Source: Actinomycetes bacterium (GTDB lineage Bacteria > Actinomycetota > Acidimicrobiia > Acidimicrobiales > Ilumatobacteraceae). From it: a stretch of DNA of 64,000 bases. The translations under genes were made by a program, and so were the position numbers. Of this stretch, positions 1,943-57,994 are shown piece after piece. The notes under the pieces were generated by a model, which ran no database searches, was not told the origin of the DNA, and saw nothing but the letters and a program-made list of their open reading frames with translations. Numbering within the stretch: the stretch's first letter is position 1; each line of letters opens with the position of its first letter. The stretch is taken from contig JANLPV010000110.1 of the NCBI GenBank assembly GCA_031367435.1, positions 3,561-67,560 on the forward strand, read 5' to 3'.

Positions 1943-3379
1943 TCACGACACCGGCCGAAGCGGTCCTGCAAGGGCCTTGCCGGCAGCATGCCATCCGCAC
2001 ATTCCATGCACGCCGGCACCTGGGGGTGTCGAGGCTGAGCACAGCAACAGCGCGGGGTTCGGTGTCACGTACGACCGAAGAGCGACCGTTGGTCGAAATA
2101 TCAGCTGGACGCCGTTGTGTGCGCCACCGGCGATGTCGCCCCCGACATAATTCGGATTGTACGTCTGCAAATCGGCAGGCGACGACGTGTGCCGCGCCAG
2201 TACAAGGTCTCGAAAGCCTGGTGCAAATCGCTCGATTTGCGACTCGATCGCAGACGTGGCGTCGCCGGTGTAGCCGTGGGGCACATGCGCGTAGGCCCAA
2301 AGTGTGTGCTTGCCAGCGGGCGCGCGAGTGGGATCGAACAACGAGGACTGCACTACCAGCACAAGTGGACGCGGCGGCATGCGCCCGGCCGCTACGTCGG
2401 CCTCGGCCGCCACGAGTTCGTTGAACGTGCCCACCACATGCACCGTGCCCGCGCGACGGCACGCTTCGTTCTCCCAGGGAACCGCGCCATCGAGGGCGTA
2501 GTCGATCTTGAACGACCCGGGGCCATGACGAAATCTGCGCAGTCGACTTCTGTAGCTCGCCGGCAATTCGTCGCCAGCGATCGAGGCAAGTTGCGCCGGG
2601 TTTGTATCGAACAGCGCGACGCGATGCGCCGGCAGGTCTGCCATCGAGCGAACCATCATGTTCGTGCGGACGTCGCCGCCGAGCTCCCGCAAACGAGCAA
2701 CGAGCGCGTCGGCCACCGCCTGCGAGCCACCTACTGCAACGGGCCAACCGCCTGCGTGCGCCGAACCCGCAAGCATCAAACCAAACGCCGAGGTGAGCGG
2801 CCTACTGAGTGGCAACATTGCGTGCGCCGCGCAGCCACCGAACAGCGCCGCAGCTTCCTCGGTGGCAAAGAGCCGGGTGAGCCAGGTGGCGGGCTGTAAA
2901 CCGCGCAGCCCAAAGCGGCCCAACACGAGCGGATGACGGGGTACGTTCAGCACCGGACCGAGCAACTGGGGCAATACGAGCGGCCAGTCCTCGACAAGCC
3001 GCCGCATCAACAGTCGCCATGCGCGGCTGTCGCTGCCCAAACCCTGTGCCGTTTCATACACGTCGCGGTAGAGCACACCGGCTTGGCCGCCATCGATCGG
3101 ATGAGCAAGCGGGATCTCGGGAAAGGCCCACTGCAAACCATGCTTGGCAAGGCCGGCCAACTCGAGCGCGGGCGACGAGACACCAAGCGCGTGAACGGCT
3201 GCGCACACGTCGTGCACGAAACCTGGCAACGTCAGCTGTGCCGAACGGGTTCCGCCACCAATCGTGTCGGCCGCTTCGAGCACGAGAACCGAGTGCCCTG
3301 CTTCGGCGAGTCGCACGGCGGCCGACAACCCATTGGGCCCTGAGCCAACGATGACAGCGTCAAATCGTTCGGAGGTCAT
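1943..3379 (-). CDS. FAD/NAD(P)-dependent oxidoreductase, phytoene desaturase (CrtI-like) family
   Basis: N-terminal dinucleotide-binding motif FDAVIVGSGPNGLSAAVRLAEAGHSVLVLEA..IGGG. Its length of about 478 aa is typical of the COG1233 family. I chose the ATG at 3379 over the TTG at 3385. Confidence 0.8.
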   Translation of the reverse strand: MTSERFDAVIVGSGPNGLSAAVRLAEAGHSVLVLEAADTIGGGTRSAQLTLPGFVHDVCAAVHALGVSSPALELAGLAKHGLQWAFPEIPLAHPIDGGQAGVLYRDVYETAQGLGSDSRAWRLLMRRLVEDWPLVLPQLLGPVLNVPRHPLVLGRFGLRGLQPATWLTRLFATEEAAALFGGCAAHAMLPLSRPLTSAFGLMLAGSAHAGGWPVAVGGSQAVADALVARLRELGGDVRTNMMVRSMADLPAHRVALFDTNPAQLASIAGDELPASYRSRLRRFRHGPGSFKIDYALDGAVPWENEACRRAGTVHVVGTFNELVAAEADVAAGRMPPRPLVLVVQSSLFDPTRAPAGKHTLWAYAHVPHGYTGDATSAIESQIERFAPGFRDLVLARHTSSPADLQTYNPNYVGGDIAGGAHNGVQLIFRPTVALRSYVTPNPALLLCSASTPPGAGVHGMCGWHAAGKALAGPLRPVS

Positions 3380-3443
3380 GGACAAGATCCCGTCACCTTG
3401 GGCACGATGGCAACGCGGTCAGCGCACCAATGGCGGATTCGCA

Positions 3444-4460
3444 CTACCCGCTGGCCTCCTCGCGGCGATGCCCGGCGGCAAGTTCAGAGAGTTTGCCGAG
3501 GTCGATTTGTTTCGACGGGACAGCGGCCACCTTGCACTCCGTGACTGCACGAAGCGTGGCCGTTCGGGCACCGGACTCGAACACGGCTCGTTCGCCAAGC
3601 ACCGCACCGGGGCCGAACTCGGCCAGCTTCTCGCCGTCGACCTCGACCACGAGCACGCCGTTCAACAGCAGAAAGATTTCGTCGCTCATCGAGCCCTGCT
3701 CAACGAGCGTCTTGCCCTCCTTCACCCTGCGAATGTCGGGCTTCTTGCCACCGCGCATGATCACATCCTGCAGTTCCTTCTCGAGCAGCGATTCAACCTC
3801 GGTGACCAGAGCGGGCGAATCTTCGTCGCCCCAGGGGGTGCGGCGACCGAAGGAATCGGCCATCCACTTCTTGTATTCGGCAACACTGCTCTTTGCCACG
3901 AGTTCGCCGCTGTGGTCGAATACCCAGTGTCGCGGGAACCCAGAGGCACCAGTCATCGCGGAATCGTGAGTGCCGTCGGCGTGAATGGTCAAGTCGAGTG
4001 TCGTCCACACGATTGGTGCGTGATACTGGACGAACGGCGGGTGCTTGACCGCGCGAGGCATCGGAGCGCCGGTGCGACCACCAACGGTTTGCGTGAACCG
4101 AACAGAGGTGGGCGTGACCTCAGCAGTGGCTTGTTGATCTGGCAGCTTCACGGCGGGGATGGTGATCGAACCCACGCCAAGACCAACCGTGGTCGCGCCG
4201 ATGAGTCCACCACCGCAGTAGCCGTGGCCAACGATGGCGCCCGAGTCGTCGACATCGATATACGCGCGCAGTTCGTTGGCGAAGCGGAAGCGATCGTTCA
4301 GGCGTAGATCCTCAATTGTCGCCGAGATGTCGGAGCCCATCGCGTCAGGCGGCGGTGGATCATGGTGCGCCATCTTCATCCGAGTTGCGATCTTGCCCAT
4401 TCCCTCCAAAAGGTCGGATGGGATCCATGACACCGTCGTGATACTGCGTTCGATCCTCAT
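3444..4460 (-). CDS. cyclic nucleotide-binding domain protein with uncharacterised ~230-aa N-terminal domain
   Basis: C-terminal CNB motifs are present: FGPGAVLGERAV and ARTATLRAV (Gly-Glu and Arg-Thr-Ala phosphate-binding cassette). A strong SD (AAGGAGGA) lies 5 nt upstream of the ATG at 4460. Confidence 0.8.
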   Translation of the reverse strand: MRIERSITTVSWIPSDLLEGMGKIATRMKMAHHDPPPPDAMGSDISATIEDLRLNDRFRFANELRAYIDVDDSGAIVGHGYCGGGLIGATTVGLGVGSITIPAVKLPDQQATAEVTPTSVRFTQTVGGRTGAPMPRAVKHPPFVQYHAPIVWTTLDLTIHADGTHDSAMTGASGFPRHWVFDHSGELVAKSSVAEYKKWMADSFGRRTPWGDEDSPALVTEVESLLEKELQDVIMRGGKKPDIRRVKEGKTLVEQGSMSDEIFLLLNGVLVVEVDGEKLAEFGPGAVLGERAVFESGARTATLRAVTECKVAAVPSKQIDLGKLSELAAGHRREEASG

Positions 4461-4642
4461 GTGTCCTCCTTGCTTCAAAGCTTGCTGTCGTGGATTGCGT
4501 TCGCTTGTTTCACTTCATCGTGCGCCTCGACCACCGCTGCATCCAGTGCGCTGACTGGCGTTTGCCGGTGTTGCTGGCACCCCCTTTCGACGTGAAGCGC
4601 GCACCCTGGCGCCACGGCGGTTTCGGGAGTTGAGTTGTCTTC

Positions 4643-7018
4643 GTGAGGGACGCGACAACGGTGTGGGCGAAGTCCCAGTGGCGACGCCGGTGGGTAGCGC
4701 TCGTCTTTGCAATGTTCGTGCTCGCACTCTCTGGCTCGCTTGCTCTCGCCGCGGCGCAGGGTGCCCGTCATGCCAACGGCGCGTTCGACCGACTCCGTGA
4801 CCAAACGTCCGCATCCGACATCGGAGTCGATGTGAACGACCCGAGCCTCAGGCCCGAAGGCGATGCACTTGCCGCGCGCCTTCTGCCGCTCATTGGGGCC
4901 ACGGGCGCCGCCAAGGAAGATCGATACTGGATGCGGCCGGCCGGAAGCGAGCTGGTCCCGGGATTTGAGATCTACGCCCTGGTCCAGCATCAATTGTTGG
5001 ACCGTCCGGTAGACGTTCCCGCCGTGATCGCTGGGCACCTACCGGACCCAACCAACAGTGGCCAGATCGCCCTCGGTCGACGGTTTGCTGGGCTCCTGGG
5101 CCTGCATGTGGGCGATCAGGTCACGTTCGAATCAGCGCCGGTCGATCTCTCGTTCTCGGGCCCCGATGCCGACAAGTTGAACGGGCCAAAAGTTGAGTTC
5201 ACTGTCACTGCCATCGTCGTGAGTCCCCTCGATTTCGACGCTCCAGCCGGTGTCGCCTATCTCTCTCCGGCCTTCGCCGACACGTACTCCACACAGATCT
5301 ACCGCCAATCCGGTGTTCACATTCAAGTCAGCGACAAGGCTCGTGCCCTCGAGATGGTTCGCAGCGGAACGGCCGGGTCGGGCGATGCGCAACTCGATGG
5401 CGCTCTGGGTGTGCGCCCATCACCATGGAGCAATAGTGAACAGGTGAGCGGTGGGCTGCGCGTTGTGAGCACTGCGTTGTGGCTCTTTGCAGGAGTCGTT
5501 GCCAGCGCCGGTCTGATCACGTTCGCATTGCTCGTGCGACGGCTCGCGCGCTCGACGTCCACCGACTTCGAGGTGCTCTCGGCGATAGGGCTCGATCGGC
5601 GGGGCAAGGCGGTATGTGGAGTGTTGCTTATCGCACCAGTAGTAGCACTTGGCGTGGCGGGCGCCGCGCTTGGTGGAATCGCACTCACCCCGTTCGTGCG
5701 TGTCGGTATCGCCGCACAGGTCGATCCAGAAAGTGGTCCGTTCGTTGTTTGGCAAGTGCTGACACTCGGCATGTTGGTACTCGCCATCTCGGCCTTCGTG
5801 GTGAGCGTGCCCTCTTACATTCTGATGAGGCGCACTTCACCGAGATCGCACGTTGCGGTGCATCACCCGGCTATCAGCCGTCCGATCCCGATTTCGCTGG
5901 GGATCCGTTACACACTAGGCGGCAAAGACGGCGGGGGCACCAGTCGTGCCACTGTCTTCGCCTGTGTGGGTCTGATGACCGCGGTCGTTGCCAGTATGTG
6001 TTTCGGCGCCTCGATGGCACGTCTGCCCACCCGTCCAGAGCTCTGGGGTGGCGGCTCGAACGTAGCGCTTGATTTCGGCGAGGGTGTAGGGGGAGAACCA
6101 AACGAACCCTACGACCAAGCTCTACGAGCCCTGACCCGCGACCCACGCCTCGACGCGCTGGCGGGCAAGATCGTGTTCTACCCACAGGTCGGCGGTCTGG
6201 AACCGAGCGCGCTCGCTCTCGACACCCGACTCGGTGAGCCGATGCTCACCATGCTTGCGGGACGCGCGCCAAGCTCGCCGAGCGAAATCGTTATGGGGCG
6301 AGTCACGATGCGGCGGTTGTCACTGCACCTCGGAGATGTCGTTAACGTGACCTTGGGCGACTCCACTGAGTCGTTTCACCTCGTCGGACAGGCTGCGTTC
6401 CCTCTCCTCGACTTTCCCGTCTTCGGCGACGGGGTCGCTGTCACACTCGATGGTGGCAGCAGGTTCCCCGAGTTCGCTGCAGGCGCGCACCAATATCAAA
6501 TCATGCTGAAGTGGGCCGACGAGGTGGACGAGGTCGCCGCTATGGCCGATCTCGTCGGGCAGCGCTACCACATCGGAGTCCCGCGACCACCAGCTCCGGT
6601 CGCCAACTTGGTGCAAGTGCAACAGCTTCCTTTGCTGCTGGCCGCTTTCTTCGGTGTACTCGCGCTAACAACCGTCGCATATTTGCTTGCAGTTTCCGCT
6701 CGTGCCAGGCGACGCCAGTTCGCTGTGCTTGCCGCGCTCGGGTTGCGTCCCGGCGACCGTGCCGCGATCGTTGGGTGGCAGGCAGCGACCCTCGGCGTCC
6801 TCGCCTGCGCTCTTGGCGTTCCGGCCGGCATTGTCGCCGGACGAGCCGTGTGGACAACCGTCGTACGCCGTATCGGAGTGGCGGCCGAACACGAGCTTCC
6901 GCTCGGCGCGCTCGCGGTCACCGTCGCAATTGCCCTGTTCGGCTCGCTCTCGATCGCCGTGGTGCTGATCCTTTCCGCTCGTCGGCAACCTCTTGCAACC
7001 TCGCTCAGGGCCGACTGA
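4643..7018 (+). CDS. ABC transporter permease, fused double FtsX/MacB-type
   Basis: The 791-aa protein has two TM bundles separated by large extracytoplasmic regions. Its C-terminal tail ...SARRQPLATSLRAD is typical of FtsX. It starts with GTG. Confidence 0.85.
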   Translation: MRDATTVWAKSQWRRRWVALVFAMFVLALSGSLALAAAQGARHANGAFDRLRDQTSASDIGVDVNDPSLRPEGDALAARLLPLIGATGAAKEDRYWMRPAGSELVPGFEIYALVQHQLLDRPVDVPAVIAGHLPDPTNSGQIALGRRFAGLLGLHVGDQVTFESAPVDLSFSGPDADKLNGPKVEFTVTAIVVSPLDFDAPAGVAYLSPAFADTYSTQIYRQSGVHIQVSDKARALEMVRSGTAGSGDAQLDGALGVRPSPWSNSEQVSGGLRVVSTALWLFAGVVASAGLITFALLVRRLARSTSTDFEVLSAIGLDRRGKAVCGVLLIAPVVALGVAGAALGGIALTPFVRVGIAAQVDPESGPFVVWQVLTLGMLVLAISAFVVSVPSYILMRRTSPRSHVAVHHPAISRPIPISLGIRYTLGGKDGGGTSRATVFACVGLMTAVVASMCFGASMARLPTRPELWGGGSNVALDFGEGVGGEPNEPYDQALRALTRDPRLDALAGKIVFYPQVGGLEPSALALDTRLGEPMLTMLAGRAPSSPSEIVMGRVTMRRLSLHLGDVVNVTLGDSTESFHLVGQAAFPLLDFPVFGDGVAVTLDGGSRFPEFAAGAHQYQIMLKWADEVDEVAAMADLVGQRYHIGVPRPPAPVANLVQVQQLPLLLAAFFGVLALTTVAYLLAVSARARRRQFAVLAALGLRPGDRAAIVGWQAATLGVLACALGVPAGIVAGRAVWTTVVRRIGVAAEHELPLGALAVTVAIALFGSLSIAVVLILSARRQPLATSLRAD

Positions 7019-7019
7019 G

Positions 7020-9329
7020 ATGGCAGTGGACTCGGTGAGCGCAATCGCCTTGTGGGTGCGTAGCCACATCCAACGCGACTGGCGCGCCCTCACAGCGTTG
7101 GCGCTGAGTGTTGCCGTCTTCGGCGGATTGGCGATGACCGCAGGCATTGGTGCGCTACGGGCGGGCTCGGCGTGGGAAGAACTGCTGGCTCGAACGAACG
7201 TCCCCGACTTCGCCAAAGAAGTACCAAGCGGCGAATCACAAGCCGTCGTCGACGAGCTTCTCTCCCGCTCAGGCGTGGCCAGCGCCACCCGTATGGCTTT
7301 CATGTTGATTGGTCTGGAGGGGTCGCCTCCTACGGGTGGCTTCACCGGACTCGACGCCGGTTTTGGCACCGACATCTACCGTCCAATCGTGGTCTCGGGG
7401 CGTGCCGCCGATCCCGCACGCGTCGACGAGTTCACGATCAACCCGGTGATGGCACACCTCACCGGCCTTCGCCCGGGCGACCATACGGTGCTCGTGTCCA
7501 CCCCCGACCTCGTTCATCAGCCCGCGACGATGGTGGGTATCGTCGTAGGGCCCTTGGACATCGGCCTCAACGGCGGTCAGCCCTCGGCATGGCTCACACC
7601 TGCGTTCGGAAGCAGGTGGTTCGAGGCGTACCTCGCGGCCAACCCGCCACAGGTGCGTGACACCTATCGCGACGTTGTGATGGTCAACGTGACGTCGCAG
7701 GCCGTGCACGCCCAGCTCAGCGCTGAGAACTACTTGGCCGACTCCGACTTCGCCGGACACGAAATTGCGGCAGCGCTCGACGCAGTAGGAACGGTGTATC
7801 TGATTCTCGCGATCACAACCGCCGTTGGCTTGCTGATTGCTGTTGGCCAACTGACGGGCAGGCGCGTTCGTCGACAATCGGAACAAGCCGTCACCCTCGC
7901 TGCCCTGGGGCTGACACCTGGTGACCGCCGATTGGCCTTGGCCGGATCACACGTCTTCGCGGCATTTCTCGGCACACTACTGGCACCCGCGGTGGCCTAC
8001 TTGGCGAGCCCGCTCACCGGTCGCGGCCTCATCAGTCAGGTCGATCCCAACGGGTATCACGTCACTGACTTGTTCATTCTGTCTCTCGGTGCCCTTACTG
8101 GCTTCGTCGTACTCTCGGCGACAGCACTCGGCGCTGCATGGGGGACGCACACCACGTCGTCGACCGCGTCGCGACCGACGCCGTTGGCATCAGTAGCTCT
8201 TCCTGGCCCGGCGGGGTTGTTCGGGAGCAAGGTCGCGGCTGGCTGGACGACACGATCAGGACGGTCGGCAGCCCGAGGCCAGGTCGGAGTGCTGACCTTG
8301 GGAATCGCGGCCGCGGTCGCCGTGTTGGTGTGGTCGAGCGCGGCACGTCACGTGGTGAGCGCACCTGAACTGTACGGCGCGAATTGGGATGCAGCCGTCG
8401 TCGTCAACGACGACGGCTCCGACGTCGATCTTGTTGTCGCTGCAAACACGGCGCGTGATCGCATCGCATCGAGACCCGACATCGGATCTGTGCTCGGAAC
8501 CGGCATAGCCGGCATGGTCGAGACACAGGTGGGCCGAGCAGAGGTTCTACAGATCGACAAGAACGCCGGGCCGTGGTGGCCAACGTTGTTGGCCGGCCGA
8601 GTCCCGAACGATCCGCACGAGATAACCGTCGGCGGGGCTGCGCTTGTCGGCCAATTACACATCGATAGCACGGTCACCATCGACGATCAGCAATACACCA
8701 TCGTTGGCGAGCACGTCACGACAACCTGGTCGAACGGCGAGTTCGGGCAGACGGTCGCGATGTACACCGGCACCATCCAAGATGCACACGTCGGGGCGCC
8801 GACCGCGGTGGTTTGGACAGAACTCGCAGGGGACGCAACCACCGATGACCTCGCCGCGCTGGTGGGCGATGCGTACGCCGTAACAAGCCCGCAGCAGGTG
8901 CGTCCGAGCGACGTCACGAACCTCGAGCTGATCGGCGGGCTTGATGAACTGCTGTTGTTGACGTGTGCGTTGCTCGCAGCGGCGACGTTGGCAAACGGCA
9001 TCATTCTGGCAACCCGCGCCCGCCGGCGCGATCACGCAACGATTCGAGCGCTGGGCGCCCGACCCTCGACGATTGCAGGCTCGGTTCGTTGGCATGTAGC
9101 CATCGTGAGCACGGTCAGCGCGGCTGTGGGTATTCCACTTGGTTTGCTTGCTGGAGCATCCGTGTGGCGTCGAACCGCACATACGGTGTACGTCGACGAT
9201 GTGCTTCGTCGACCAGCCGGAGTTGCGATCTCAGTGCTCGCCGCGTTGCTGTTGACCAGCGCACTGGTCGCCGCGGCAAACGGGGTGTCGGCAACCCGAC
9301 GCAGCCGCGCCCAAGTGACGCCAGAGTGA
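7020..9329 (+). CDS. ABC transporter permease, fused double FtsX/MacB-type
   Basis: The ATG lies 1 nt after the stop of the previous permease. The N-terminus SAIALWVRSHIQRDW is paralogous to the 13833 gene (PAIALWVRSVLRRRW). It has two FtsX-like TM bundles. Confidence 0.85.
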   Translation: MAVDSVSAIALWVRSHIQRDWRALTALALSVAVFGGLAMTAGIGALRAGSAWEELLARTNVPDFAKEVPSGESQAVVDELLSRSGVASATRMAFMLIGLEGSPPTGGFTGLDAGFGTDIYRPIVVSGRAADPARVDEFTINPVMAHLTGLRPGDHTVLVSTPDLVHQPATMVGIVVGPLDIGLNGGQPSAWLTPAFGSRWFEAYLAANPPQVRDTYRDVVMVNVTSQAVHAQLSAENYLADSDFAGHEIAAALDAVGTVYLILAITTAVGLLIAVGQLTGRRVRRQSEQAVTLAALGLTPGDRRLALAGSHVFAAFLGTLLAPAVAYLASPLTGRGLISQVDPNGYHVTDLFILSLGALTGFVVLSATALGAAWGTHTTSSTASRPTPLASVALPGPAGLFGSKVAAGWTTRSGRSAARGQVGVLTLGIAAAVAVLVWSSAARHVVSAPELYGANWDAAVVVNDDGSDVDLVVAANTARDRIASRPDIGSVLGTGIAGMVETQVGRAEVLQIDKNAGPWWPTLLAGRVPNDPHEITVGGAALVGQLHIDSTVTIDDQQYTIVGEHVTTTWSNGEFGQTVAMYTGTIQDAHVGAPTAVVWTELAGDATTDDLAALVGDAYAVTSPQQVRPSDVTNLELIGGLDELLLLTCALLAAATLANGIILATRARRRDHATIRALGARPSTIAGSVRWHVAIVSTVSAAVGIPLGLLAGASVWRRTAHTVYVDDVLRRPAGVAISVLAALLLTSALVAAANGVSATRRSRAQVTPE

Positions 9330-9421
9330 CCACGTCATGGCGCGACAGTGTGGCTGGCACCACCTTGCGACACAGGCTCGCGCCCTCGCCCCAGAGGCGC
9401 GAATGGTGTTGAATCACTGAC

Positions 9422-10768
9422 ATGGGAGCGATAACGGTATTTATCGCGGATGACAGTGTCTTCATTCGCGAGGGGGTCAAGGCAATGCTTTCGCGCCAGC
9501 CCGACCTCGAGATCGTGGGTGAGGCAGAAGACCATGATGGTCTCGTGAACGGCGCCGAGGCAGCAGCGCCAAACGTTGTCGTGAGCGACATCCGCATGCC
9601 GCCAAACTTTCTCCGCGAGGGCATCGAGGCCTGCAAGCTCATTCGCAAACGCCATCCCGGCACCGGCATCGTGATTCTCAGTCAGTACGACGACCCTGAC
9701 TATGCGATCGCACTCTTGTCCGAAGGCGCCGCCGGGTACGCGTATCTCCTGAAAGATCGGATTGCCGAGGGCGACCAGCTCGCGAGGGCAATTCGCGAAG
9801 TTGCGTCCGGCGGATCGATGCTTGATCCTGCTGTGGTGAGTGCGCTCATGAACCCGGTACGTCGTACCGGGGGGCTCAATGCCGACGACGACGCTCTACT
9901 CGAGATGGTCGCCGAAGGCAAGCCGATCAAGGCCATCGCCGTGGCCACCCAATCGACGCCCGCCGCGGTGGAGACGCGGGTCGAGGGTTTGTTCCTACGC
10001 CTCGCCGAGGGCGTTTCTGCTGGAACCGCTGGATCGCTCGACCGACTCAAGCGCATGCATACGGCCATCGTGTCGCGCGAGGAGCAGGGCGAATCGCTGT
10101 CGCGACTGTTACCCACGGGAGTAGCCGAACGAATCCGTGCCCGAGGCGCGCATGCGGGCGACACCGAACAACTCAATGTCACGGTATTGATGAGTGACAT
10201 TCGCGGATACTCCACGATCAGCGAACACACAGACCCCTCGCTTCTCGCCCAGCAACTCAACCGCCATCGGGCCGAGATGAACAGAGCAATTCTCGACGCC
10301 GGCGGCACGGTCATGCAGTACGTCGGCGACGCCGTGATGGCCGTCTTCGGCGCACCCGAGCCAACCACCGATCACGCCGACCGCGCTCTCGTGGCAGCTG
10401 TCGCGATGCACGCAGCGCAAGTCGCTGTCAACACGAAGTGGACCGCTGAAGGACTCGAACCGTTCCCCCTCGGCATCGGATTGTCCACCGGCGATGTGGC
10501 TGCCGCGATGCTCGGGTCAGACGAACGCCTCGAGTACACAATGGTCGGTGATGCGGTCAACCTCTGCCAACGGCTTCAGCAGTTCGCTGCCGACGGAGAG
10601 ATCGTGGCAAGCGACGCCACATGGGCACAACTCACTGTGAAACCGCCCGCCGAAGATCTCGGTGAACATCTCGTCAAGGGCCGATCCACACCGGTGCGGC
10701 CACGCAAGATCGCATCCGTCAATCAACACACGACCAGCACGGTCGCGAAGCAGGAGGAAGCATCATGA
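9422..10768 (+). CDS. response regulator receiver - degenerate LuxR-type HTH - class III adenylate/guanylate cyclase fusion
   Basis: REC motifs are FIADDS, VVVSDIRMPP and AYLLKD. An HTH-like stretch reads LLEMVAEGKPIKAIAVATQSTPAAVETRV. Cyclase motifs are VLMSDIRGYS, YVGDAVMAVFG and GDAVNLCQRL. Confidence 0.85.
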   Translation: MGAITVFIADDSVFIREGVKAMLSRQPDLEIVGEAEDHDGLVNGAEAAAPNVVVSDIRMPPNFLREGIEACKLIRKRHPGTGIVILSQYDDPDYAIALLSEGAAGYAYLLKDRIAEGDQLARAIREVASGGSMLDPAVVSALMNPVRRTGGLNADDDALLEMVAEGKPIKAIAVATQSTPAAVETRVEGLFLRLAEGVSAGTAGSLDRLKRMHTAIVSREEQGESLSRLLPTGVAERIRARGAHAGDTEQLNVTVLMSDIRGYSTISEHTDPSLLAQQLNRHRAEMNRAILDAGGTVMQYVGDAVMAVFGAPEPTTDHADRALVAAVAMHAAQVAVNTKWTAEGLEPFPLGIGLSTGDVAAAMLGSDERLEYTMVGDAVNLCQRLQQFAADGEIVASDATWAQLTVKPPAEDLGEHLVKGRSTPVRPRKIASVNQHTTSTVAKQEEAS

Positions 10769-11502
10769 CCGTCAGTGAATCCTTGATCGACGGCACCGCG
10801 GTCGATCACGATCTTGCTGTTGACGCACAACAGTTATTCCGAACCTTCGAGCAAGATATCGCGCCGGTACGCGCCTTGCGCGGCGCAGACTTGTATATCG
10901 GGCGCGGCGAGTTCGTGGCCGTGATGGGCCCGTCGGGCTGCGGCAAATCCACCCTCTTGAACATCATCGCTGGGCTGGAAGTTCCCGACGAGGGCGACGT
11001 CTCCGTGGCCGGGTATGCCCTTGTTGGCAAGTCCGAGAGCGAGCTCGCAATCATGCGACGTCAACACATTGGGATCGTGTTCCAGTTCTTCAACCTGCTC
11101 GAAGGTATGACCTCATTGGAAAACGTGCTCATGCCTGCACTGATCGCCGGACAAAAGCGGCGTGCCGCCGAAACACGAGCGCGCGACCTACTCGATCTGC
11201 TCGGAATCGGAGACAAGGCGAAGCAATCGCCGGCGGCGCTCTCGGGCGGCCAACGTCAGCGCCTCGCCATCGCCAGGGCGTTGGCCAATGAGCCCACCCT
11301 GCTGCTCGCAGACGAGCCAACGGGCGCGCTCGACTCCGAGGGCGGCGAAGAGGTACTCGAACTCTTCACCCGACTTCATTCGAGTGGGCAGACCATCTTG
11401 CTGGTCACTCACGACCAGCCCGTTGCCGACGCAGCCCAACGCGTTGTACGTATGAAGGATGGTCGCGTTGTCGACGACGGCCGTACGCCCACCCGCGATT
11501 GA
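10765..11502 (+). CDS. ABC transporter ATP-binding protein (MacB/LolD-like)
   Basis: Walker A is GPSGCGKST, the signature is LSGGQRQRLAIARAL and Walker B is LLLADEPTGALD. An AGGAGG SD is present, and the start overlaps the stop of the cyclase gene (ATGA). Confidence 0.95.
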   Translation: MTVSESLIDGTAVDHDLAVDAQQLFRTFEQDIAPVRALRGADLYIGRGEFVAVMGPSGCGKSTLLNIIAGLEVPDEGDVSVAGYALVGKSESELAIMRRQHIGIVFQFFNLLEGMTSLENVLMPALIAGQKRRAAETRARDLLDLLGIGDKAKQSPAALSGGQRQRLAIARALANEPTLLLADEPTGALDSEGGEEVLELFTRLHSSGQTILLVTHDQPVADAAQRVVRMKDGRVVDDGRTPTRD

Positions 11503-11512
11503 CCGAGCCACA

Positions 11513-13597
11513 ATGAGCGCATCGAGACGTCCCCTCGCGGGCAAGCTCGGAGTGGCAGTGTGTGTGATCAGTGTGCTCGCGGCCGGAGCGGTGCTCGTCG
11601 CTGTTCGCGCCGACGCCACCGTCGGAATGGTCGTGCTCACGTTTCTGGTCGGGGCCTGGGCATTGGCCGGCGTGGCCATCACGATCCGCGAGCAGTGCCC
11701 GGCAGCGTTGATCGTGCACGCATTCACGGCCGCTGCGGCGATCGGTGCGGTGTCGTGGGACCTGAACGCGACTCGCGATCTACACAACCTGAGCGGTCTG
11801 CTCGCCGACATCGGCCAGCGTCTCGCTGTAACGGTCACGCCGGCGCTGGTGTTTCACTTGTTGATGACGCTGCCCGATGGACATTTCTCGCGCTCCAGCC
11901 ATCGTCGAATTGTCGCTGTTGCCTACACGACGGCGCTGCTCACGATGTTGGCACTGCTCACTGATCGCGACAAGATCATCGTCTGGCCGGTGGCGGTGCT
12001 TTGGATTGCAGCGCTATCGGCCGCTCCGACGGCGCATACGAACTATCGGGCCGCCGGCGTGATCGACCAGCGACGAATGCAATGGATTGGTTGGGCCGCA
12101 CTGGTGGCCACCGAAGTGACGTTGGTGTCAGTTGCGCTGTCGTTCGTGGCTGATTGGCCACATCACATTGCCGAGATCGCGCTCGCTGGATCGGGTTTGG
12201 TGCCCTTGGCTATCGCCGCCAGCACAGCTTCGCGCCTTCTGGCGCGTGTCGATCGGCTGCTGACCCACACTGTGTCTCTCGCTGGGCTGACAGCGCTGAT
12301 CACAGTCGCGTATGTGCTGGCACTGGTAGCATTCGGTCGCAAGCCGAACGACGGCGAACGATCGCTGTTGTTGCTCTCGATGGTGGCCGCCGCGGCTGCC
12401 GCGATTGCGTATCAGCCGGCGCGGGTGTGGCTGACCGAGCGAGCCAACCGGGTGGTGTACGGCGAACGGGTGTCGCCCGATGAGGCATTGCGTACATGGG
12501 GTTCGCGGCTCACCCGCGCGATTCCGCTCGACGAGCTGTTGCTGCAGCTGGCCGAGACATTGCGAAAATCGATGCGGCTCAGCAGCGCCCAGATCTGGAC
12601 CGGAGCCGATGGTCATTACGAGGTGGCGGCGATGGTGCCGCACCGTTCGTTGCGTCCGTTTGTGGTGGGCGACAAGGAACGGACCGTTGCCAGCCGAGCA
12701 GGCGTATCCGGCGGAACGTGGATCAATATTTGGTTGCCCGGACTCATCGACTCATCGACAGCAGCCATCAGCCGAGTAGCTCCGATCGCGCACAGTGGCG
12801 AGCTTCTCGGCCTGATCGTGTGTGAGCGGCCGGCGGACAGAGCGGCCTTCACGGACGAGGACGACCGAGTGCTCACCGAGCTAGCTCGCCAGGTTGGCCT
12901 AGCCCTGCACAACGTGCAGCTCGACACGGCGCTGCAAGCCTCGCTCGACGAGCTGCGACACACCAACGACGAACTACGCGCCTCACGCGTGCGCATCGTC
13001 GCTGCGGGCGATGCCGAGCGGCGCAAGCTCGAACGCAATCTGCACGACGGCGCCCAGCAGCATCTGGTGGCTCTCGCCGTGAAACTACGTCTGGCCAAAG
13101 ACTCCGTCGTTGACGATCCGGCCGATGCCGAGGCGATGATCGACGAAATCCGTGGAAACTTACGAGAGGCCATCACCGAGTTGCGCTCTCTCGCCCACGG
13201 CATCTTCCCCCCACTGCTGATGTCCGGTGGCCTTGGCGAAGCGCTCCCCGCTGCGGCGGCTCGAGCCGCATTGCCAACCGCCACCGACATCACGGTGGGC
13301 CGGCACACCCAAGAGGTGGAGGCCGCCGTCTACTTTTGTTGCATGGAGGCGATGCAGAACTCGGGCAAACACGCTGGCGACGGGGCCTCCGCTCTGGTGC
13401 GAGTGTGGGAGGACGCCGATGCGTTGCGCTGGGAGGTGACCGACGACGGGCCGGGCTTCGATCCAATCGATATCGCCGGCGAGGGCCACGGCTTCGTCAA
13501 CATGCGCGACCGCATGGGTTCGTTCGGTGGCACGCTCGAGGTTGTCAGCGCCGCCGGTGCCGGCACCACCGTCCGCGGCCACATCCCGCTCGGCTAG
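11513..13597 (+). CDS. sensor histidine kinase, multi-TM N-domain + GAF-like + HisKA_3 + HATPase_c
   Basis: The H-box is ERRKLERNLHDGAQQHLVAL. A GAF-like segment reads GELLGLIVCERPADRAAF, and the ATPase G-box region reads GHGFVNMRDRMGSFGG. The start is uncertain; an alternative ATG at 11459 overlaps the ATPase gene. Confidence 0.85.
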   Translation: MSASRRPLAGKLGVAVCVISVLAAGAVLVAVRADATVGMVVLTFLVGAWALAGVAITIREQCPAALIVHAFTAAAAIGAVSWDLNATRDLHNLSGLLADIGQRLAVTVTPALVFHLLMTLPDGHFSRSSHRRIVAVAYTTALLTMLALLTDRDKIIVWPVAVLWIAALSAAPTAHTNYRAAGVIDQRRMQWIGWAALVATEVTLVSVALSFVADWPHHIAEIALAGSGLVPLAIAASTASRLLARVDRLLTHTVSLAGLTALITVAYVLALVAFGRKPNDGERSLLLLSMVAAAAAAIAYQPARVWLTERANRVVYGERVSPDEALRTWGSRLTRAIPLDELLLQLAETLRKSMRLSSAQIWTGADGHYEVAAMVPHRSLRPFVVGDKERTVASRAGVSGGTWINIWLPGLIDSSTAAISRVAPIAHSGELLGLIVCERPADRAAFTDEDDRVLTELARQVGLALHNVQLDTALQASLDELRHTNDELRASRVRIVAAGDAERRKLERNLHDGAQQHLVALAVKLRLAKDSVVDDPADAEAMIDEIRGNLREAITELRSLAHGIFPPLLMSGGLGEALPAAAARAALPTATDITVGRHTQEVEAAVYFCCMEAMQNSGKHAGDGASALVRVWEDADALRWEVTDDGPGFDPIDIAGEGHGFVNMRDRMGSFGGTLEVVSAAGAGTTVRGHIPLG

Positions 13598-13832
13598 ATA
13601 CACCGGCGCCCGCCCCTTGGGCGTCACCCGTCGCACCTGCACCTGGGTATGGGCAGACCTGGTGTGGGCAGCAACCCACGCCACCGGTAGCGAATCCACC
13701 ATCCCGCATCCCCGCGGAAGGCCTCGGATCTCCCGGATTTGGAGCACACAACAGGTCGGCGGATTCAATCGGTCGGCGCAACAAGGAGGGCGACCGGGGC
13801 GGACTGGGCGACCAGGGGCGGCGGAGTCGGTG

Positions 13833-16346
13833 CTATTCGGTACGGAGCTGAGCGGCTGGTGTGCGTCGGGTAACCCAACGAGCGGCGACAGCGGCGACGC
13901 CAACCGTCACGACCAGCGCAACGAGGGGTGGAATCATCGTTGGCAGCAACGGCATCACCGGGCCCGACGGAATGAACACGCGAAGTGCCACAATCCGCCA
14001 GACCGACCGACCGAGCACCAACCCAAGCGGCACACCGACGGCGGCAGTTGCTGCGACGAGAAACACTCCAGCCGTCAGGCCGACTCGACGACGCTGGCGC
14101 GACGTCATCCCCAGCGCGGCCAGCACAGCAAGATCACCTGCATGACGCTGCAGCAGGGTGATGAGAGCATGAATCAGCGACGCGAGCGCGAGGACGCCAA
14201 TCAGCGCGGCGATCAGCCAAGGTACTGAACGAAGCCGTTCGAGGTTGCCGAGGTCGATCTGGGGCACTGCCTCCCGCGCCGACGCCGGGAAGTCGTGCAC
14301 CACCGAATCTGTGGCGGCTTGACGGTCTGCTGTGGGCTTGAAACGAATGACAATCGACTGGGCAACCGGATTACCCCCGCCATCTCCGATCAGGGTGTGA
14401 GCGAGATCCGGCGACACGACGATGCCTTCTCCTGCGCTCGCCCTGTTTGTCACTGGTTCACTGACGACCGCGATGCCGGTGACGTGCAAGGTTTTGGTGA
14501 GGGCGTCACCCGAGAAGTTCTGCCAGGTGAGCGCCACCGTGTCGCCGATCCGTTTCTTCAAATTCTTGGCAGTTTCAGCTCCCAATGCGACCTCGTCTTC
14601 GGCGCGTGGTGCTTGTCCTGTCTCCATGACGGTGGGAGCTGATCCAACGATGGGCTCTACAGCGAGATACAGCACATCGAGCCCATCGATTTTGGTAACG
14701 TCGGTGGCGGTCAGAATCGCGGCGGCATCGGCCACATTGGGATTGCTCCTGATGAGATCGACGCCATGTTGGTATTGCACCGGGTCCGAGTATTCGCCGA
14801 TCGCTACGTCCCACAGCGCCCCGTACCGCGCTGGCTGTTCGACCACCCGGTTGAAACTGGCCACAAGTGTTCCTGCGCCGACTGCCACAGCCACGGCCGC
14901 AGCACCCGCGGCTATGGCAAGTCTAAATGACACCCCGCGGGTGAACGCCAGGGCTACACGTGGCACCGGTCCGAGTGGCGCCGCCAAACTCGATGCTGCT
15001 TGCCGAACCCGCGGCCTGTCAGATCTATCGGCTGCGATCACGGCGGCCGCAGCAACGGCGGCGAAGAACAACGCGAGCGCAACGGCGACGACCTCGAGGA
15101 CGGGCCAATCAAATCTGATCGGATGCGAGTATTCGAGGCGCCGCGCAAGGCCAACGGGGCCCAACGGTGACAGGCCAACGATCGCGATCACGGCGATACC
15201 GATTGCCATCAACGCCGCGAAGAGCGAACGCACAACCGAGCCGATGATCAGGCCCGAACGCGTGAACCCAAGTGCGGCGAGCGCCGCCCTGTCGCCCTGC
15301 TCACGCCGTAGCTGGCGCGCCAAGGTGAGACCGACAAAAACCACTGCCGCGACCATTGCGATCATGGCAAATACGAGGACGCCTTGACGCTCGGTATCCA
15401 CTCCGCGTCTCAGCGCGGGGAGATCGACGTCCTCAACCGATCCTGTGTTGATGTTCCACCCAGGCGTACCTTCGGCGAGGGACGATCCGAATTCGCTGAC
15501 CGCCGACGGGCCACCGCGCAGCCGCACGGCCGCCCCGTAGCCCCACGTCGCAAAGTCATCACCATGGGCAGCCGTCCAACCCGGACCGGCGTACAGTCCG
15601 TCGGGAAGAAATAGACCCGTGAGATCGCCGCTTGGGCGTCGTTGAAGGTCGCCGGGGCCTCGCAGAATGCCTACGACTCGACACTCGATCGGAGCCGTTT
15701 CCGGTGTGCCCGCACTGGAGGTTGGTATATCGATGTGGGCTTGGCTCCACGATGCAAGACGTATCGTGTCGCCGACATGGATGTTGCCGGCGGCCGCGGC
15801 CCCTTCTCCGATCATGACCTCGTCGGTGGCAGCTTGGTCGGCCCACCGTCCGGCGAGCAAGATCTGACGACTGACGATTGCACCGACGTCGGGCTTGGCC
15901 ATCGCCATCATCTGCACCCCACGCCCCCACCCGGTTTTGGCCGTGGGGTCGAGAATGCCCGCCATCAGAAACCCCGCCGTGGTCCAACTCTCCACATCGG
16001 GTCTGTTCGCCAAGATGTCTTGTGCCATCGATTCGGTCGTGTGCCTGTTGACGCACAGCCTCACGCCTTCTTCCTGCGACAGCGCCTGAGGGTCAACGAC
16101 AGCGGCGGGGCAGCCCTGCACGATTACGTCGTAGGAACGGCTACGCGCTCTGTGCCGCTCGACGGCCCCGTCGGCGCGGCGGGCAGCCTGCAGCGACGCG
16201 CCGATGAGGCCGGCAGACAAACCAGCAAAGAGACCAAGCGTTACCGTGGCGACCCAACGGCGGCGCAAGACCGACCGCACCCAAAGCGCGATTGCAGGCA
16301 CTGTTGTTAGCTCAGCCGTCAAGCCAGGCTGGGTCGCCGCCGGCAT
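13833..16346 (-). CDS. ABC transporter permease, fused double FtsX/MacB-type
   Basis: The 837-aa protein has two TM bundles and the C-terminal tail RWVTRRTPAAQLRTE. The ATG at 16346 overlaps the upstream receiver gene by 35 nt. A GTG about 45 nt downstream is an alternative start. Confidence 0.85.
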   Translation of the reverse strand: MPAATQPGLTAELTTVPAIALWVRSVLRRRWVATVTLGLFAGLSAGLIGASLQAARRADGAVERHRARSRSYDVIVQGCPAAVVDPQALSQEEGVRLCVNRHTTESMAQDILANRPDVESWTTAGFLMAGILDPTAKTGWGRGVQMMAMAKPDVGAIVSRQILLAGRWADQAATDEVMIGEGAAAAGNIHVGDTIRLASWSQAHIDIPTSSAGTPETAPIECRVVGILRGPGDLQRRPSGDLTGLFLPDGLYAGPGWTAAHGDDFATWGYGAAVRLRGGPSAVSEFGSSLAEGTPGWNINTGSVEDVDLPALRRGVDTERQGVLVFAMIAMVAAVVFVGLTLARQLRREQGDRAALAALGFTRSGLIIGSVVRSLFAALMAIGIAVIAIVGLSPLGPVGLARRLEYSHPIRFDWPVLEVVAVALALFFAAVAAAAVIAADRSDRPRVRQAASSLAAPLGPVPRVALAFTRGVSFRLAIAAGAAAVAVAVGAGTLVASFNRVVEQPARYGALWDVAIGEYSDPVQYQHGVDLIRSNPNVADAAAILTATDVTKIDGLDVLYLAVEPIVGSAPTVMETGQAPRAEDEVALGAETAKNLKKRIGDTVALTWQNFSGDALTKTLHVTGIAVVSEPVTNRASAGEGIVVSPDLAHTLIGDGGGNPVAQSIVIRFKPTADRQAATDSVVHDFPASAREAVPQIDLGNLERLRSVPWLIAALIGVLALASLIHALITLLQRHAGDLAVLAALGMTSRQRRRVGLTAGVFLVAATAAVGVPLGLVLGRSVWRIVALRVFIPSGPVMPLLPTMIPPLVALVVTVGVAAVAARWVTRRTPAAQLRTE

Positions 16347-16764
16347 CCCACAGGCTGCGAATGACCCGCGGCGAGAGCTCGTCTTTGTTCACGTATGCGG
16401 CGGCGCCACACGTACGCGCGGCAGCCGGCATGTCGGCCTCGGTGTATGTGGACACAAGAATGACGAGAGTTTCGGGGTGTTGAGCGGTGATGATGCGCGT
16501 GGCTTCGAGACCATCCATCGCACCCATATTGATGTCCATCAACACCAGGCCCGGATGCAAAACACCGACCAACTCGACGGCTTCTTCACCCGAAGTTGCC
16601 TCCGCCACCAGTTCGAAACCCTTCACACGTGTGATGACGGCGCGCGCGGCTGCGCGAAATGGCGCCTGATCGTCGACGACGAGTACTCGCACAACGTCGG
16701 TTTCCGCATCCATCGAGTCGGCACCTACCGATTCGCTCGCCTGTTCCATCAACAACGCCTCCAT
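16312..16764 (-). CDS. single-domain response regulator (receiver only)
   Basis: REC motifs are VLVVDDQ, LVLMDINMGAMDG and AAAYVNKD. No output domain is present. Confidence 0.8.
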   Translation of the reverse strand: MEALLMEQASESVGADSMDAETDVVRVLVVDDQAPFRAAARAVITRVKGFELVAEATSGEEAVELVGVLHPGLVLMDINMGAMDGLEATRIITAQHPETLVILVSTYTEADMPAAARTCGAAAYVNKDELSPRVIRSLWDAGGDPAWLDG

Positions 16765-16784
16765 GACCCTGTCATGGTCGCACC

Positions 16785-17498
16785 TCAGGCCCGATCGGGG
16801 AATCGTACTGATACGTCGCCGGTGGTGTGGCCAGCATCACCAGCGGTGAGATACATGAGTACGGCCGCGACTCGGCGATTGACATCGGGTTCCTCGCTGA
16901 GGTGCAGTTTGGAGAAGATCGCATTGATGTGCTTCTCGACTGCTCGCTCGGAAAGCACCAGAGCTGCGGCGATCGCAGCGTTCGACTTTCCTGTTGCCAT
17001 CTCGCCAAGAACTTCTCGCTCGCGCGGGGTCAGGAAGTCGAGTGGCTTCTTGGCCACGCGGCTCGACGAGGCAACGAGCTGTTCGACGACCTTTGGGTCG
17101 ATGACCGCTCCCCCATCGGCCACAACCCGAATCGCATCGACAAGATCGTCGACGTGAGCAACACGATCCTTCAACAAGTAACCACGTCGGGCGGAACCCT
17201 CGGCCAGCAGCGCCACTGCGAAATTGGGCGACACATATTGGCTCAACACGATCACACCGGTCTCGGGATGACTGATGCGTAACGCGGCAGCAGCCCGAAT
17301 GCCCTCGTCGGTGCTTGTAGGAGGCATGCGAATGTCGGTGACGACCAAGTCGGGGGTGGTGTCAGCAACCAGCGCGAGTAATTCGTCGAGGTCGCCCGCG
17401 GTACCCACGAGTTCAAAGTCTGACGTCGAGGAGATCAACCGCGCTAGGCCATCGCGTAGAAGCGCGTTGTCCTCGGCGATCACGATACGAATCGGCAC
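16785..17498 (-). CDS. NarL/LuxR-family DNA-binding response regulator
   Basis: REC motifs are IVIAEDN, LVVTDIRMPP and YLLKD. The C-terminal LuxR HTH reads LTPREREVLGEMATGKSNAAIAAALVLSERAVEKHINAIFSKL. It starts with GTG. Confidence 0.9.
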   Translation of the reverse strand: MPIRIVIAEDNALLRDGLARLISSTSDFELVGTAGDLDELLALVADTTPDLVVTDIRMPPTSTDEGIRAAAALRISHPETGVIVLSQYVSPNFAVALLAEGSARRGYLLKDRVAHVDDLVDAIRVVADGGAVIDPKVVEQLVASSSRVAKKPLDFLTPREREVLGEMATGKSNAAIAAALVLSERAVEKHINAIFSKLHLSEEPDVNRRVAAVLMYLTAGDAGHTTGDVSVRFPDRA

Positions 17499-17518
17499 GC
17501 TGCGATCTTAGTTGGCGC

Positions 17519-17920
17519 TCAGCGACACGCCGGACCAGGCAACCGGAGCGACCCCGCAAAGATGGCCGCTGGCAACAACACCTCGAGTGCGACGCAGGCG
17601 GTGCCGAGTGGATCTGCTCGTGGCCGGCGCAGAGCCGTTGGTGTGTCTGCCTCGCCAAGGACTCCGCAGATGAACATCATCGACAGAATTCGCACGATGT
17701 CGCGCCGCCCACGACTCTCGGCGACGAGCAACGCGGCCAGCATCGTATACGGCGCGCTGATAGCCGTGCCGATGGTCAACGCTTGAGCCGCGACGCTGCC
17801 GGGAAAGTGCAGACCAAAGAGTCGAGCTGGTTTGCCCCTCCTGATCGAGTGGACCGCACCGATCAACGAGACTGCGACATATAGCTTGACGAGAATGCGC
17901 ACGCCAATAGTGGACCTCAA
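17519..17920 (-). CDS. hypothetical membrane protein
   Basis: The 133-aa ORF has several hydrophobic segments. It lies directly upstream of, and co-oriented with, the NarL regulator. No motif was recognised. Confidence 0.45.
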   Translation of the reverse strand: MRSTIGVRILVKLYVAVSLIGAVHSIRRGKPARLFGLHFPGSVAAQALTIGTAISAPYTMLAALLVAESRGRRDIVRILSMMFICGVLGEADTPTALRRPRADPLGTACVALEVLLPAAIFAGSLRLPGPACR

Positions 17921-20161: not shown

Positions 20162-20295
20162 CCCTTCTGGAGCGGAGCTGTGCGTTCAGCGATCGAACGT
20201 GCCGCCGGTACGCAAGGCGATCGAAAGCTACCCCACCCGACTGTGTCTCTTCGCGGAATCTGTTGCACCGAGGCGAGGACGTGACAGATTGGTGC

Positions 20296-57833: not shown

Positions 57834-57994
57834 GTCGGCAACTCTACGTCGGGCAAAATGACTGAGGAATCCCCCAAAGGTATGAAGCCACTCCTCCAAA
57901 GGTGGGCCGTAGGTTCACCCTTATGGCCGATGCCAGCACGTCGACCGATCCGTACTCTGTCCCTAGCCCGACGAGGGACAGAGAGAAGGCTGAC

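Follow-up and report, generated by a model that had tools for sequence, protein, structure and literature searches.

A conserved signalling module of Acidimicrobiia and other bacteria grouping a two-component system, a receiver-linked nucleotidyl cyclase and a candidate cyclic-nucleotide receptor

The stretch of DNA analysed here (64,000 nucleotides, hereafter the window) comes from a metagenome-assembled genome (MAG) of the family Ilumatobacteraceae, class Acidimicrobiia. It carries a cluster of ten open reading frames (ORFs) in which a histidine kinase, three receiver proteins, one of them fused to a class III nucleotidyl cyclase, and a candidate receptor for cyclic nucleoside monophosphates (cNMPs) lie among genes of an ATP-binding cassette (ABC) transporter. 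This cluster is one copy of a widely conserved, previously undescribed signalling module, a variant of known signalling kinds, and no description of it was found in the literature. Its kinase probably switches on a response regulator that makes a cyclic nucleotide, and we favour, while allowing real doubt, the reading that the module is a self-contained second-messenger unit working with a cyclic nucleotide under the control of a branched two-component system. Four kinds of evidence, read directly from the sequences, are set out below: which genes are present, whether their domains are intact, how far the gene set is conserved, and a cis element common to several of the genes.

What is understood of bacterial signalling by cyclic mononucleotides comes mainly from CRP-type transcription factors and a few pathogens. 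The module described here brings together a synthesis enzyme, a candidate receptor, a kinase, a transcriptional branch, a cis operator and, often, a putative degrading enzyme. It was found in at least 520 of the species genomes scanned, among them abundant and almost unstudied Acidimicrobiia of soil and freshwater as well as several other lineages. As a pathway it is compact, with one kinase, three receivers, one cyclase, one receptor from an unannotated family of about 1,000 clusters at 50% identity, and one 18-bp site. Furthermore, since its core occurs both with and without the transporter, it lends itself as a natural experiment on the recruitment of a MacB-type ABC system by a pre-existing circuit.

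An original prediction, made from the window alone, had outlined the cluster. All ten ORFs lie where it placed them, their domain contents agree with Pfam and NCBIfam models, and its count of one kinase and three receiver proteins is correct. The same gene order is present on 13 independent contigs, each encoding an identical cyclase protein. One of the ten, a small membrane ORF (17519-17920, minus strand), matches no family in Pfam or NCBIfam, and it was dropped from the module since its homologue occurs only in near-identical contigs and in locus L017.

Conservation of the module

A scan of one genome per GTDB species yielded at least 520 confirmed relatives of the receiver-cyclase, a family comprising more than 120 clusters at 70% identity or above. 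The best 80 of these relatives all keep 64% identity or more along the full length and belong to MAGs of Ilumatobacteraceae, other Acidimicrobiales, Nitriliruptorales, Egibacteraceae, Dormibacterota, Chloroflexota and Nocardioidaceae. In 82 distinct related loci, homologues of every window protein were mapped by tblastn, and partners were counted where both flanks reached at least 8 kb, which was so for 41 loci. The kinase and the NarL-family regulator were each found in 38 of the 41, the stand-alone receiver in 37, a full-length homologue of the receptor in 36, the ABC ATPase in 36, at least one FtsX gene in 34 and a CrtI-like oxidoreductase in 22. Of 69 loci with enough sequence upstream, 33 have the receptor gene directly divergent from the cyclase gene, at less than 400 bp. 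In the window, the permease genes FtsX1 and FtsX2 separate the two.

The association also holds when the search starts from the receptor. Three members of the receptor family, from a clade at 53-57% identity and chosen only for their long contigs, are all divergent neighbours of a gene encoding a Response_reg-Guanylate_cyc protein, with HisKA_3 kinases and regulators nearby. The idea of a two-component system with a cyclase output and its own receptor alongside thus finds strong conservation in both search directions.

Thirteen loci, mainly from Dormibacterota, Chloroflexota, Nitriliruptorales and Nocardioidaceae, lack the ATPase gene, and all nine of them with at least 3 kb of downstream sequence lack any FtsX gene as well. 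What these loci retain is the receptor and the cyclase, together with the NarL regulator, the receiver and between one and four HisKA_3 kinases in tandem. Because this set is kept with or without the ABC genes, the core of the module consists of the receptor, the receiver-cyclase, the kinase, the stand-alone receiver and the NarL regulator. The original view of the cluster as centred on its permeases does not survive this result, as the core persists in other phyla without them.

The receiver-cyclase

The central protein of the module (9422-10768, plus strand) combines a receiver, a degenerate LuxR-type helix-turn-helix (HTH) and a class III nucleotidyl cyclase domain. Pfam places Response_reg at residues 6-106 and Guanylate_cyc at residues 252-422. 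Residues 4-194 are 41% identical to the neighbouring NarL regulator, HTH included, and the NCBIfam models for the NarL and MctR regulators align to the protein as far as residue ~190. Although the Pfam GerE model does not score on it, the label of receiver-HTH-cyclase used by the original prediction is justified, because the homology to the NarL regulator runs through the HTH of the latter. Across the family, the positions of the recognition helix vary and those of the HTH scaffold are conserved.

The residues of the phospho-acceptor set in the receiver (D10, D11, D56, S87 and K111) are invariant in the family. The cyclase domain aligns best to CyaB of Pseudomonas aeruginosa (3r5g) and Cya2 of Synechocystis (2w01); its metal-binding residues D259 and D303 and its transition-state residues N380 and R384 match the catalytic residues of both enzymes and are likewise invariant. 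Position 299, which aligns to a Lys in CyaB and a Glu in Cya2, is an invariant Gln, and the second specificity position is T373. The protein thus has neither of the canonical substrate pairs, Lys with Asp or Thr for ATP and Glu with Cys, Gly or Ser for GTP. Ahead of the cyclase domain comes a helical segment (residues ~200-250), for which the alignment is with the helical or transducer region in structures of mycobacterial cyclases (7yz9, 5o5k). Judged by these residues, the cyclase looks functional, and the same can be said of the cNMP pocket of the candidate receptor described below.

The kinase and the two other receivers

The sensor histidine kinase (11513-13597, plus strand) begins with ~9 hydrophobic, predicted membrane helices spread over ~300 residues, followed by GAF, HisKA_3 (E = 7e-15) and HATPase_c (E = 2e-10) domains. 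The LHD, N-box, DDGPGF and GHGF motifs are readable in its translation. The stand-alone receiver (16312-16764, minus strand) consists of a receiver only (Response_reg, E = 3.7e-22), and the NarL-family response regulator (16785-17498, minus strand) joins a receiver to a GerE HTH. With Response_reg detected in all three receiver proteins, the set displays the features of a NarL/HisKA_3-class two-component system. The link between kinase and receivers is a genetic one, with the kinase gene placed in the cyclase operon and the genes of the other two receivers kept nearby in related loci. In lineages without ABC genes, the membrane domain of the kinase is homologous to that of the window protein, at 27-42% identity over residues ~106-330.

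Two further observations concern the kinases. An NKFDE-type motif was not visible in the GAF region when read from the translation, and feedback by cNMP on the kinase is not claimed. In lineages lacking ABC genes, up to four tandem HisKA_3 kinases of ~680-730 residues replace the single kinase, for instance in locus L092 (11296-19545, plus strand) and in the JGI contig of P0421, and one of the tandem kinases has a weak HisKA_7TM match. Such an arrangement suggests that several inputs converge on the same cyclase in these lineages.

The candidate receptor and its operon

The candidate cNMP receptor (3444-4460, minus strand) is a protein of 338 residues with a novel N-terminal domain and a C-terminal cNMP-binding domain. 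The Pfam cNMP_binding model (E = 1.1e-14) is confined to residues 250-325. This part is of the CAP/PKA type, a beta-roll with the phosphate-binding cassette G-E-x-A ... R-[ST]-A; the cassette itself (GERA...RTA) is at least 90% conserved in the family, and Foldseek matches were obtained to the cNMP-binding domains of PKG, PKA, CRP and HCN.

Residues 1-235 gave no match in Pfam and no sequence match in the PDB, even at E = 10. An exhaustive HMMER search delimited the receptor family at 1062 clusters at 50% identity, most members being ~335 residues long and consisting of the N-terminal domain plus the cNMP-binding domain. Ten residues (W12, P14, G127, W152, G163, S173, P176, H178, P209 and W210) are invariant among members that are 34-58% identical to the window protein, and because of them a pocket or active site is suggested in the N-terminal domain. 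The AlphaFold2 model of this domain, built from an alignment of 54 sequences, shows a mostly beta fold with a predicted local distance difference test score (pLDDT) of 75 and a predicted template modelling score of 0.75. A Foldseek search of the domain against viral structures returned no match, and with the full-length receptor model the matches were dominated by the cNMP-binding domain. In rare variants of the N-domain family (P0258, P0268 and P0366), the additional part is a second cNMP-binding domain, an Mpo1-like domain or a TrkA_N domain at the N terminus, and some proteins of 230-250 residues appear to be the N-terminal domain alone; these variant architectures are too few to interpret.

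A gap of 58 bp separates the receptor gene from a downstream gene in operon-like position, which encodes a CrtI/CrtO-like FAD-dependent oxidoreductase (1943-3385, minus strand; Amino_oxidase, NAD_binding_8 and DAO) and had been passed over by the original prediction. Its matches to the NCBIfam CrtO/CrtI-family models are partial and far below the curated cut-off. The 22 loci with an oxidoreductase homologue, located within 10 kb, include Dormibacterota and Chloroflexota. Additionally, 27 of the 82 related loci contain a gene for a metallo-beta-lactamase (MBL)-fold protein (Lactamase_B_2). Where this was checked, the MBL gene lies directly downstream of the receptor gene (L085, 7980-8813, minus strand; L012, 8017-8853; L093, 11030-11860; L094, 10997-11869), and in some loci the oxidoreductase gene comes after it. 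The MBL protein aligns end to end with the NCBIfam model NF041851, 'cyclic nucleotide-degrading phosphodiesterase', at E = 2e-9, which is far below the curated cut-off. If that assignment is true, the module would hold synthesis, reception and degradation of its messenger.

A common 18-bp box

One 18-bp sequence, the imperfect palindrome GGTGTGGCTGGCACCACC, recurs in the window and in dozens of relatives at a fixed ~75 bp ahead of the start codons of genes for the cyclase, FtsX proteins, the kinase and the receiver-only protein. With up to three mismatches allowed, the window contains three copies where 0.08 are expected, and all three are inside the cluster. The first (GGTGTTGCTGGCACCCCC, 4567-4584, plus strand) starts 76 bp before the start of FtsX1, in the region that this gene has in common with the divergent cNMP-binding gene. 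The second (AGTGTGGCTGGCACCACC, 9347-9364, plus strand) starts 75 bp before the ATG of the cyclase gene. The third (GGTGTGGCCAGCATCACC, on the minus strand GGTGATGCTGGCCACACC, 16824-16841) is embedded in the NarL gene at its 3' end and precedes the start of the receiver-only gene on the minus strand by 77 bp. Sixteen related loci share this last site, and three of these score for it on the receiver-only strand, with the start of the receiver-only gene 62-77 bp further on.

Across the window and its relatives, 115 box hits were obtained at 19 bits or more. Sorted by downstream gene, 48 precede a cyclase, 20 an FtsX gene, eight a kinase, five a receptor and three a receiver-only gene, the remaining 31 falling before other or unclassified genes or no ORF. 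Hits before kinases occur where permeases separate the kinase from the cyclase, and the box most often stands 75-77 bp from the start codon. Conservation extends over the ~85 bp in front of the cyclase start irrespective of the preceding gene, be it FtsX, receptor or NarL. Among 61 distinct regions of this kind from relatives, most have the box starting at -74 to -78, and the conserved element CGCCCTCGC comes after it at about -45. A -10-like hexamer (in the window TTGAAT, 7 nt from the ATG) is located 7-8 nt before the cyclase ATG, with no Shine-Dalgarno sequence visible, and for this reason a leaderless or near-leaderless cyclase transcript is suggested.

The region upstream of FtsX1 (4557-4645) is a diverged duplicate of the one upstream of the cyclase gene (9337-9424): 61 of 88 positions are identical, and the alignment scores 20 against -11.5 +/- 4.7 for shuffled sequences. 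The promoter-like region before the cyclase gene suggests that cyclase, ATPase and kinase would be transcribed separately from the upstream pair FtsX1-FtsX2, both units carrying the same operator. The original prediction had named independent transcription of the cyclase and transporter genes as a result that would count against it; the cyclase gene does seem to head a unit of its own, yet it shares its operator with the permease pair. The box defines a local regulon, and it is the best evidence tying the permeases functionally to the signalling system.

As a candidate binder of the box, the NarL regulator ranks first. The HTH of the cyclase protein was considered as well and is less likely, given the missing GerE score and the variable recognition helix. 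Other explanations for the conserved region upstream of the cyclase gene were examined and rejected. No Rfam family matched at gathering thresholds, with chance-level hits at E up to 5, which argues against an RNA leader or riboswitch, and RNAalifold on 44 regions gave -2.3 kcal/mol and zero covariation. A sigma-54 promoter (TGGCAC...TTGC) would have a spacing of 4 nt rather than 5 in the window, and its TTGC is not conserved in relatives; to our knowledge, Actinomycetota generally lack sigma-54. A scan for the sigma-70 consensus gave zero promoter-like hits and is uninformative for a high-GC organism, as is the terminator scan, with hits near chance expectation.

The ABC ATPase and the FtsX permeases

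The ATPase (10765-11502, plus strand) is of the MacB/LolD type, its best models being LolD, MacB and FtsE. Its gene overlaps that of the cyclase in an ATGA, with AGGAGG just upstream, and it lies directly 3' of the cyclase gene in 49 of 70 related loci. FtsX1 (4643-7018, plus strand) and FtsX2 (7020-9329, plus strand), the latter starting one base past the stop of the former, have the same architecture by Pfam and hydropathy, with two FtsX stretches each. FtsX3 (13833-16346, minus strand), whose first 35 bp overlap the 3' end of the gene for the stand-alone receiver, matches MacB_PCD and FtsX. All three permeases have ~8 predicted helices and two extracytoplasmic domains of ~220 residues, one after helix 1 and one after helix 5, so that each polypeptide is made of two modules in a fused-dimer layout. 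These matches place the transporter in the MacB/FtsX (type VII) superfamily.

In the wider set of loci, ATPase and FtsX genes occur together in 47, the ATPase alone in five, neither in nine and FtsX alone in none; a single locus has between 0 and 5 FtsX genes within 10 kb. As judged from this distribution, the ABC ATPase and its variable set of FtsX permeases are an Acidimicrobiia addition to the signalling core. The connection between permeases and signalling system asserted by the original prediction is sustained by the ATGA coupling, by the co-occurrence of FtsX and ATPase and by the common upstream box. On the 3.8-Mb contig of locus L066 (10001-14261), a cyclase-ATPase-kinase operon was observed with no FtsX permease within 10 kb on either side.

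The nature of this connection is a different matter, for the original prediction had understood the cluster as a Bce-like system of transport-coupled sensing and detoxification. Under such a scheme, the ABC transporter would be the true sensor relayed to the kinase, induction of the transporter would be the main output and the cyclase would be a side branch. Like BceRS-BceAB, the module joins a two-component system to an ABC system of the MacB/FtsX superfamily through gene linkage and apparent co-regulation: the ATPase gene stands between cyclase and kinase and is coupled to the former, the FtsX operons have the same box as the signalling operon, and FtsX and ATPase strictly co-occur with the module in Acidimicrobiia. 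The parts themselves do not correspond. BceB-type permeases have 10 helices and one large extracellular domain between helices 7 and 8, BceS is a two-helix intramembrane-sensing kinase with a minimal loop and no other sensor domain, and BceR belongs to the OmpR family. The permeases of the module have, in contrast, eight helices and two extracytoplasmic domains, its kinase has ~9 helices with GAF and HisKA_3, and its regulators are of the NarL type; the permease sequences matched no solved BceB structure, their best PDB match being LolC at E = 0.91. Moreover, the signalling core is kept in the 13 ATPase-less loci, where the membrane domain of the kinase is still homologous, an indirect sign against the Bce feature that signalling requires the transporter (flux sensing, with a kinase-permease complex). 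The number of FtsX genes also goes down to zero, and in some genomes, such as that of L066, the ATPase has no permease nearby. The Bce-like framing fails on permease topology, kinase type and regulator family, and we consider it unlikely to describe how the module works.

Other readings of the cluster

A second possibility is an anti-phage system resembling Pycsar, in which a cyclic (pyrimidine) nucleotide would be made on infection and a cNMP-binding effector would cause cell death or arrest. As in Pycsar, a class III-like cyclase gene adjoins a gene for a cNMP-binding/effector fusion; PADLOC PycC models match the cyclase domain (6.8e-24), the PycTIR/effector models match the cNMP-binding domain (5.5e-11), and the Gln at the substrate position is non-canonical. 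What PADLOC matches, however, are the generic domains only, those for cyclase activity and cNMP binding, and the receptor has a soluble effector part, with neither a TIR domain nor membrane helices. Unlike in Pycsar, the cyclase here is under receiver control and shares an operon with a kinase, and many loci hold a putative cNMP phosphodiesterase in cis. The distribution differs as well: Pycsar systems are patchy, mobile and found in defence islands, whereas the receiver-cyclase retains 64-91% identity at a syntenic locus in hundreds of species, a degree of vertical conservation unlike that of mobile, fast-evolving defence genes. The cluster is flanked by ordinary metabolic genes, a housekeeping context without mobile-element or defence-island features. 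An anti-phage role is accordingly most improbable.

That the NarL two-component system, the cyclase, the cNMP-binding protein and the ABC exporters are independent and merely adjacent, as might happen in high-GC actinobacterial genomes dense in signalling genes (an unrelated HisKA_3/NarL pair lies at ~56-57.9 kb of the same window), deserves hardly any credence, since this view is already contradicted by the conservation of the five-gene set across classes and phyla in both search directions, and also faces the translational coupling and a cis element confined, in the window, to the cluster.

Proposed mechanism

As a self-contained second-messenger unit, the module might operate as follows. 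A membrane- or envelope-associated signal would be sensed by the GAF/HisKA_3 kinase through its own ~9-helix domain, and the kinase would phosphorylate the three receivers. Phosphorylation-induced dimerisation of NarL-type receivers is established for VraR and for DesR-type regulators, and class III cyclases are obligately dimeric. The phosphorylated receiver-HTH-cyclase could likewise dimerise, its two class III domains forming interfacial active sites that would make a 3',5'-cNMP. The adjacent 338-residue receptor would read this nucleotide, its C-terminal domain controlling the novel N-terminal one. Meanwhile, the NarL regulator would bind the box and co-regulate the cyclase-ATPase-kinase, receptor and FtsX operons together with the unit of receiver-only gene and FtsX3, an arrangement that would amount to auto-regulation. 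The stand-alone receiver may serve as a phosphate sink or modulator, buffering or redirecting the flow of phosphate. In many relatives, a putative MBL cNMP phosphodiesterase and a CrtI-like oxidoreductase follow the receptor in its operon. In Acidimicrobiia, the ABC ATPase would energise the double-module FtsX permeases, which can be viewed as fused pairs of MacB-like half-transporters recruited to the regulon, and the permeases may either serve the pathway as an output or modulate the kinase.

A more speculative extension concerns what is new in kind. The N-terminal domain of the receptor might be a new effector under cNMP control, be it an enzyme or a switch for protein-protein contacts, and the ABC-cyclase version found in Acidimicrobiia might be a new type of signalling unit, one in which mechanical work done at the envelope by a MacB-type transporter is coupled to the synthesis of a cyclic nucleotide in the cytoplasm, perhaps a non-canonical one given the invariant Gln. 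We hold this extension tentatively, and with clearly less confidence than the second-messenger reading itself.

Several points weigh against the second-messenger reading. Phosphotransfer, activation by dimerisation, the identity of the nucleotide, the protein that binds the box and the role of the transporter are steps that we infer, and all functional links between the members of the module derive from conservation and sequence. The product of the cyclase is not assignable from sequence because Gln299 replaces the determinant residue, Lys for ATP or Glu for GTP. The box copy within the NarL gene may reflect coding constraint alone. The AlphaFold2 models are of moderate confidence (pLDDT 69 and 75), and the best fold relative of the receptor N-terminal domain in the PDB by Foldseek is BAS0735 (3c5p), a protein of unknown function, at a template modelling score of only ~0.5. 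The putative phosphodiesterase encoded by the MBL gene is absent from the 64-kb window. Finally, every related locus is a MAG contig, and a few taxonomic labels may be binning errors.

Comparison with known systems

Receiver domains joined to class III cyclases are known from CyaC of Spirulina and Anabaena and from CyaB of Stigmatella aurantiaca, and they form a class in Galperin's census of response regulators. The protein of the module shares their logic, with a phospho-accepting receiver controlling a class III domain and a two-component signal turned into a cyclic nucleotide. It differs from them in being a complete NarL-type regulator, receiver and remnant LuxR HTH, to which a cyclase has been appended; in being a paralogue of the regulator encoded next door; and in the Gln at its substrate position. 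It is also set apart by the dedicated receptor gene, the specific kinase and the two further receivers around it. We know of no characterised receiver-cyclase with this architecture or neighbourhood.

The sequence of events proposed above, from kinase to dimerisation of a receiver-cyclase, to messenger, to dedicated receptor, resembles that of the receiver-GGDEF proteins PleD and WspR with PilZ and other receptors of cyclic di-GMP, and here too the branch runs beside a DNA-binding regulator. The cyclase fold is different, the messenger would be a 3',5'-cNMP rather than cyclic di-GMP, and the candidate receptor of the module has a CAP/PKA-type domain fused to a novel one.

The combination of an actinobacterial class III cyclase with a LuxR-type HTH, and the Gln in place of the substrate-defining Lys, are shared with Rv0386 of Mycobacterium tuberculosis. 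Proteins of the Rv0386 type consist of a cyclase, an NB-ARC ATPase and a LuxR HTH. Domain order and input thus differ, Rv0386 having no receiver, and the second specificity residue is Asn in Rv0386 and Thr here. Unlike the cyclase of the module, Rv0386 has no conserved neighbourhood with a receptor or kinase. It was reported to make cyclic AMP with a cyclic GMP side activity (Castro et al. 2005, FEBS J).

Neighbouring genes and minor observations

The second HisKA_3 kinase/NarL regulator pair (window positions ~56040-57900, minus strand) is unrelated to the cluster. It shows 31-35% identity to the cluster receivers, and no box copy was found near it. The metabolic genes flanking the cluster encode a SnoaL_2-like protein (19229-20161, minus strand) and an acyl-CoA dehydrogenase (20263-21459, plus strand). 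A fourth FtsX-type permease gene (2-1552, plus strand), also missed by the original prediction, is cut at its 5' end by the edge of the window; on longer contigs its product has 819-838 residues and is 25-30% identical to FtsX1-3. It is accessory and stands outside the main finding, and with it this locus has four permease genes for a single ATPase gene.

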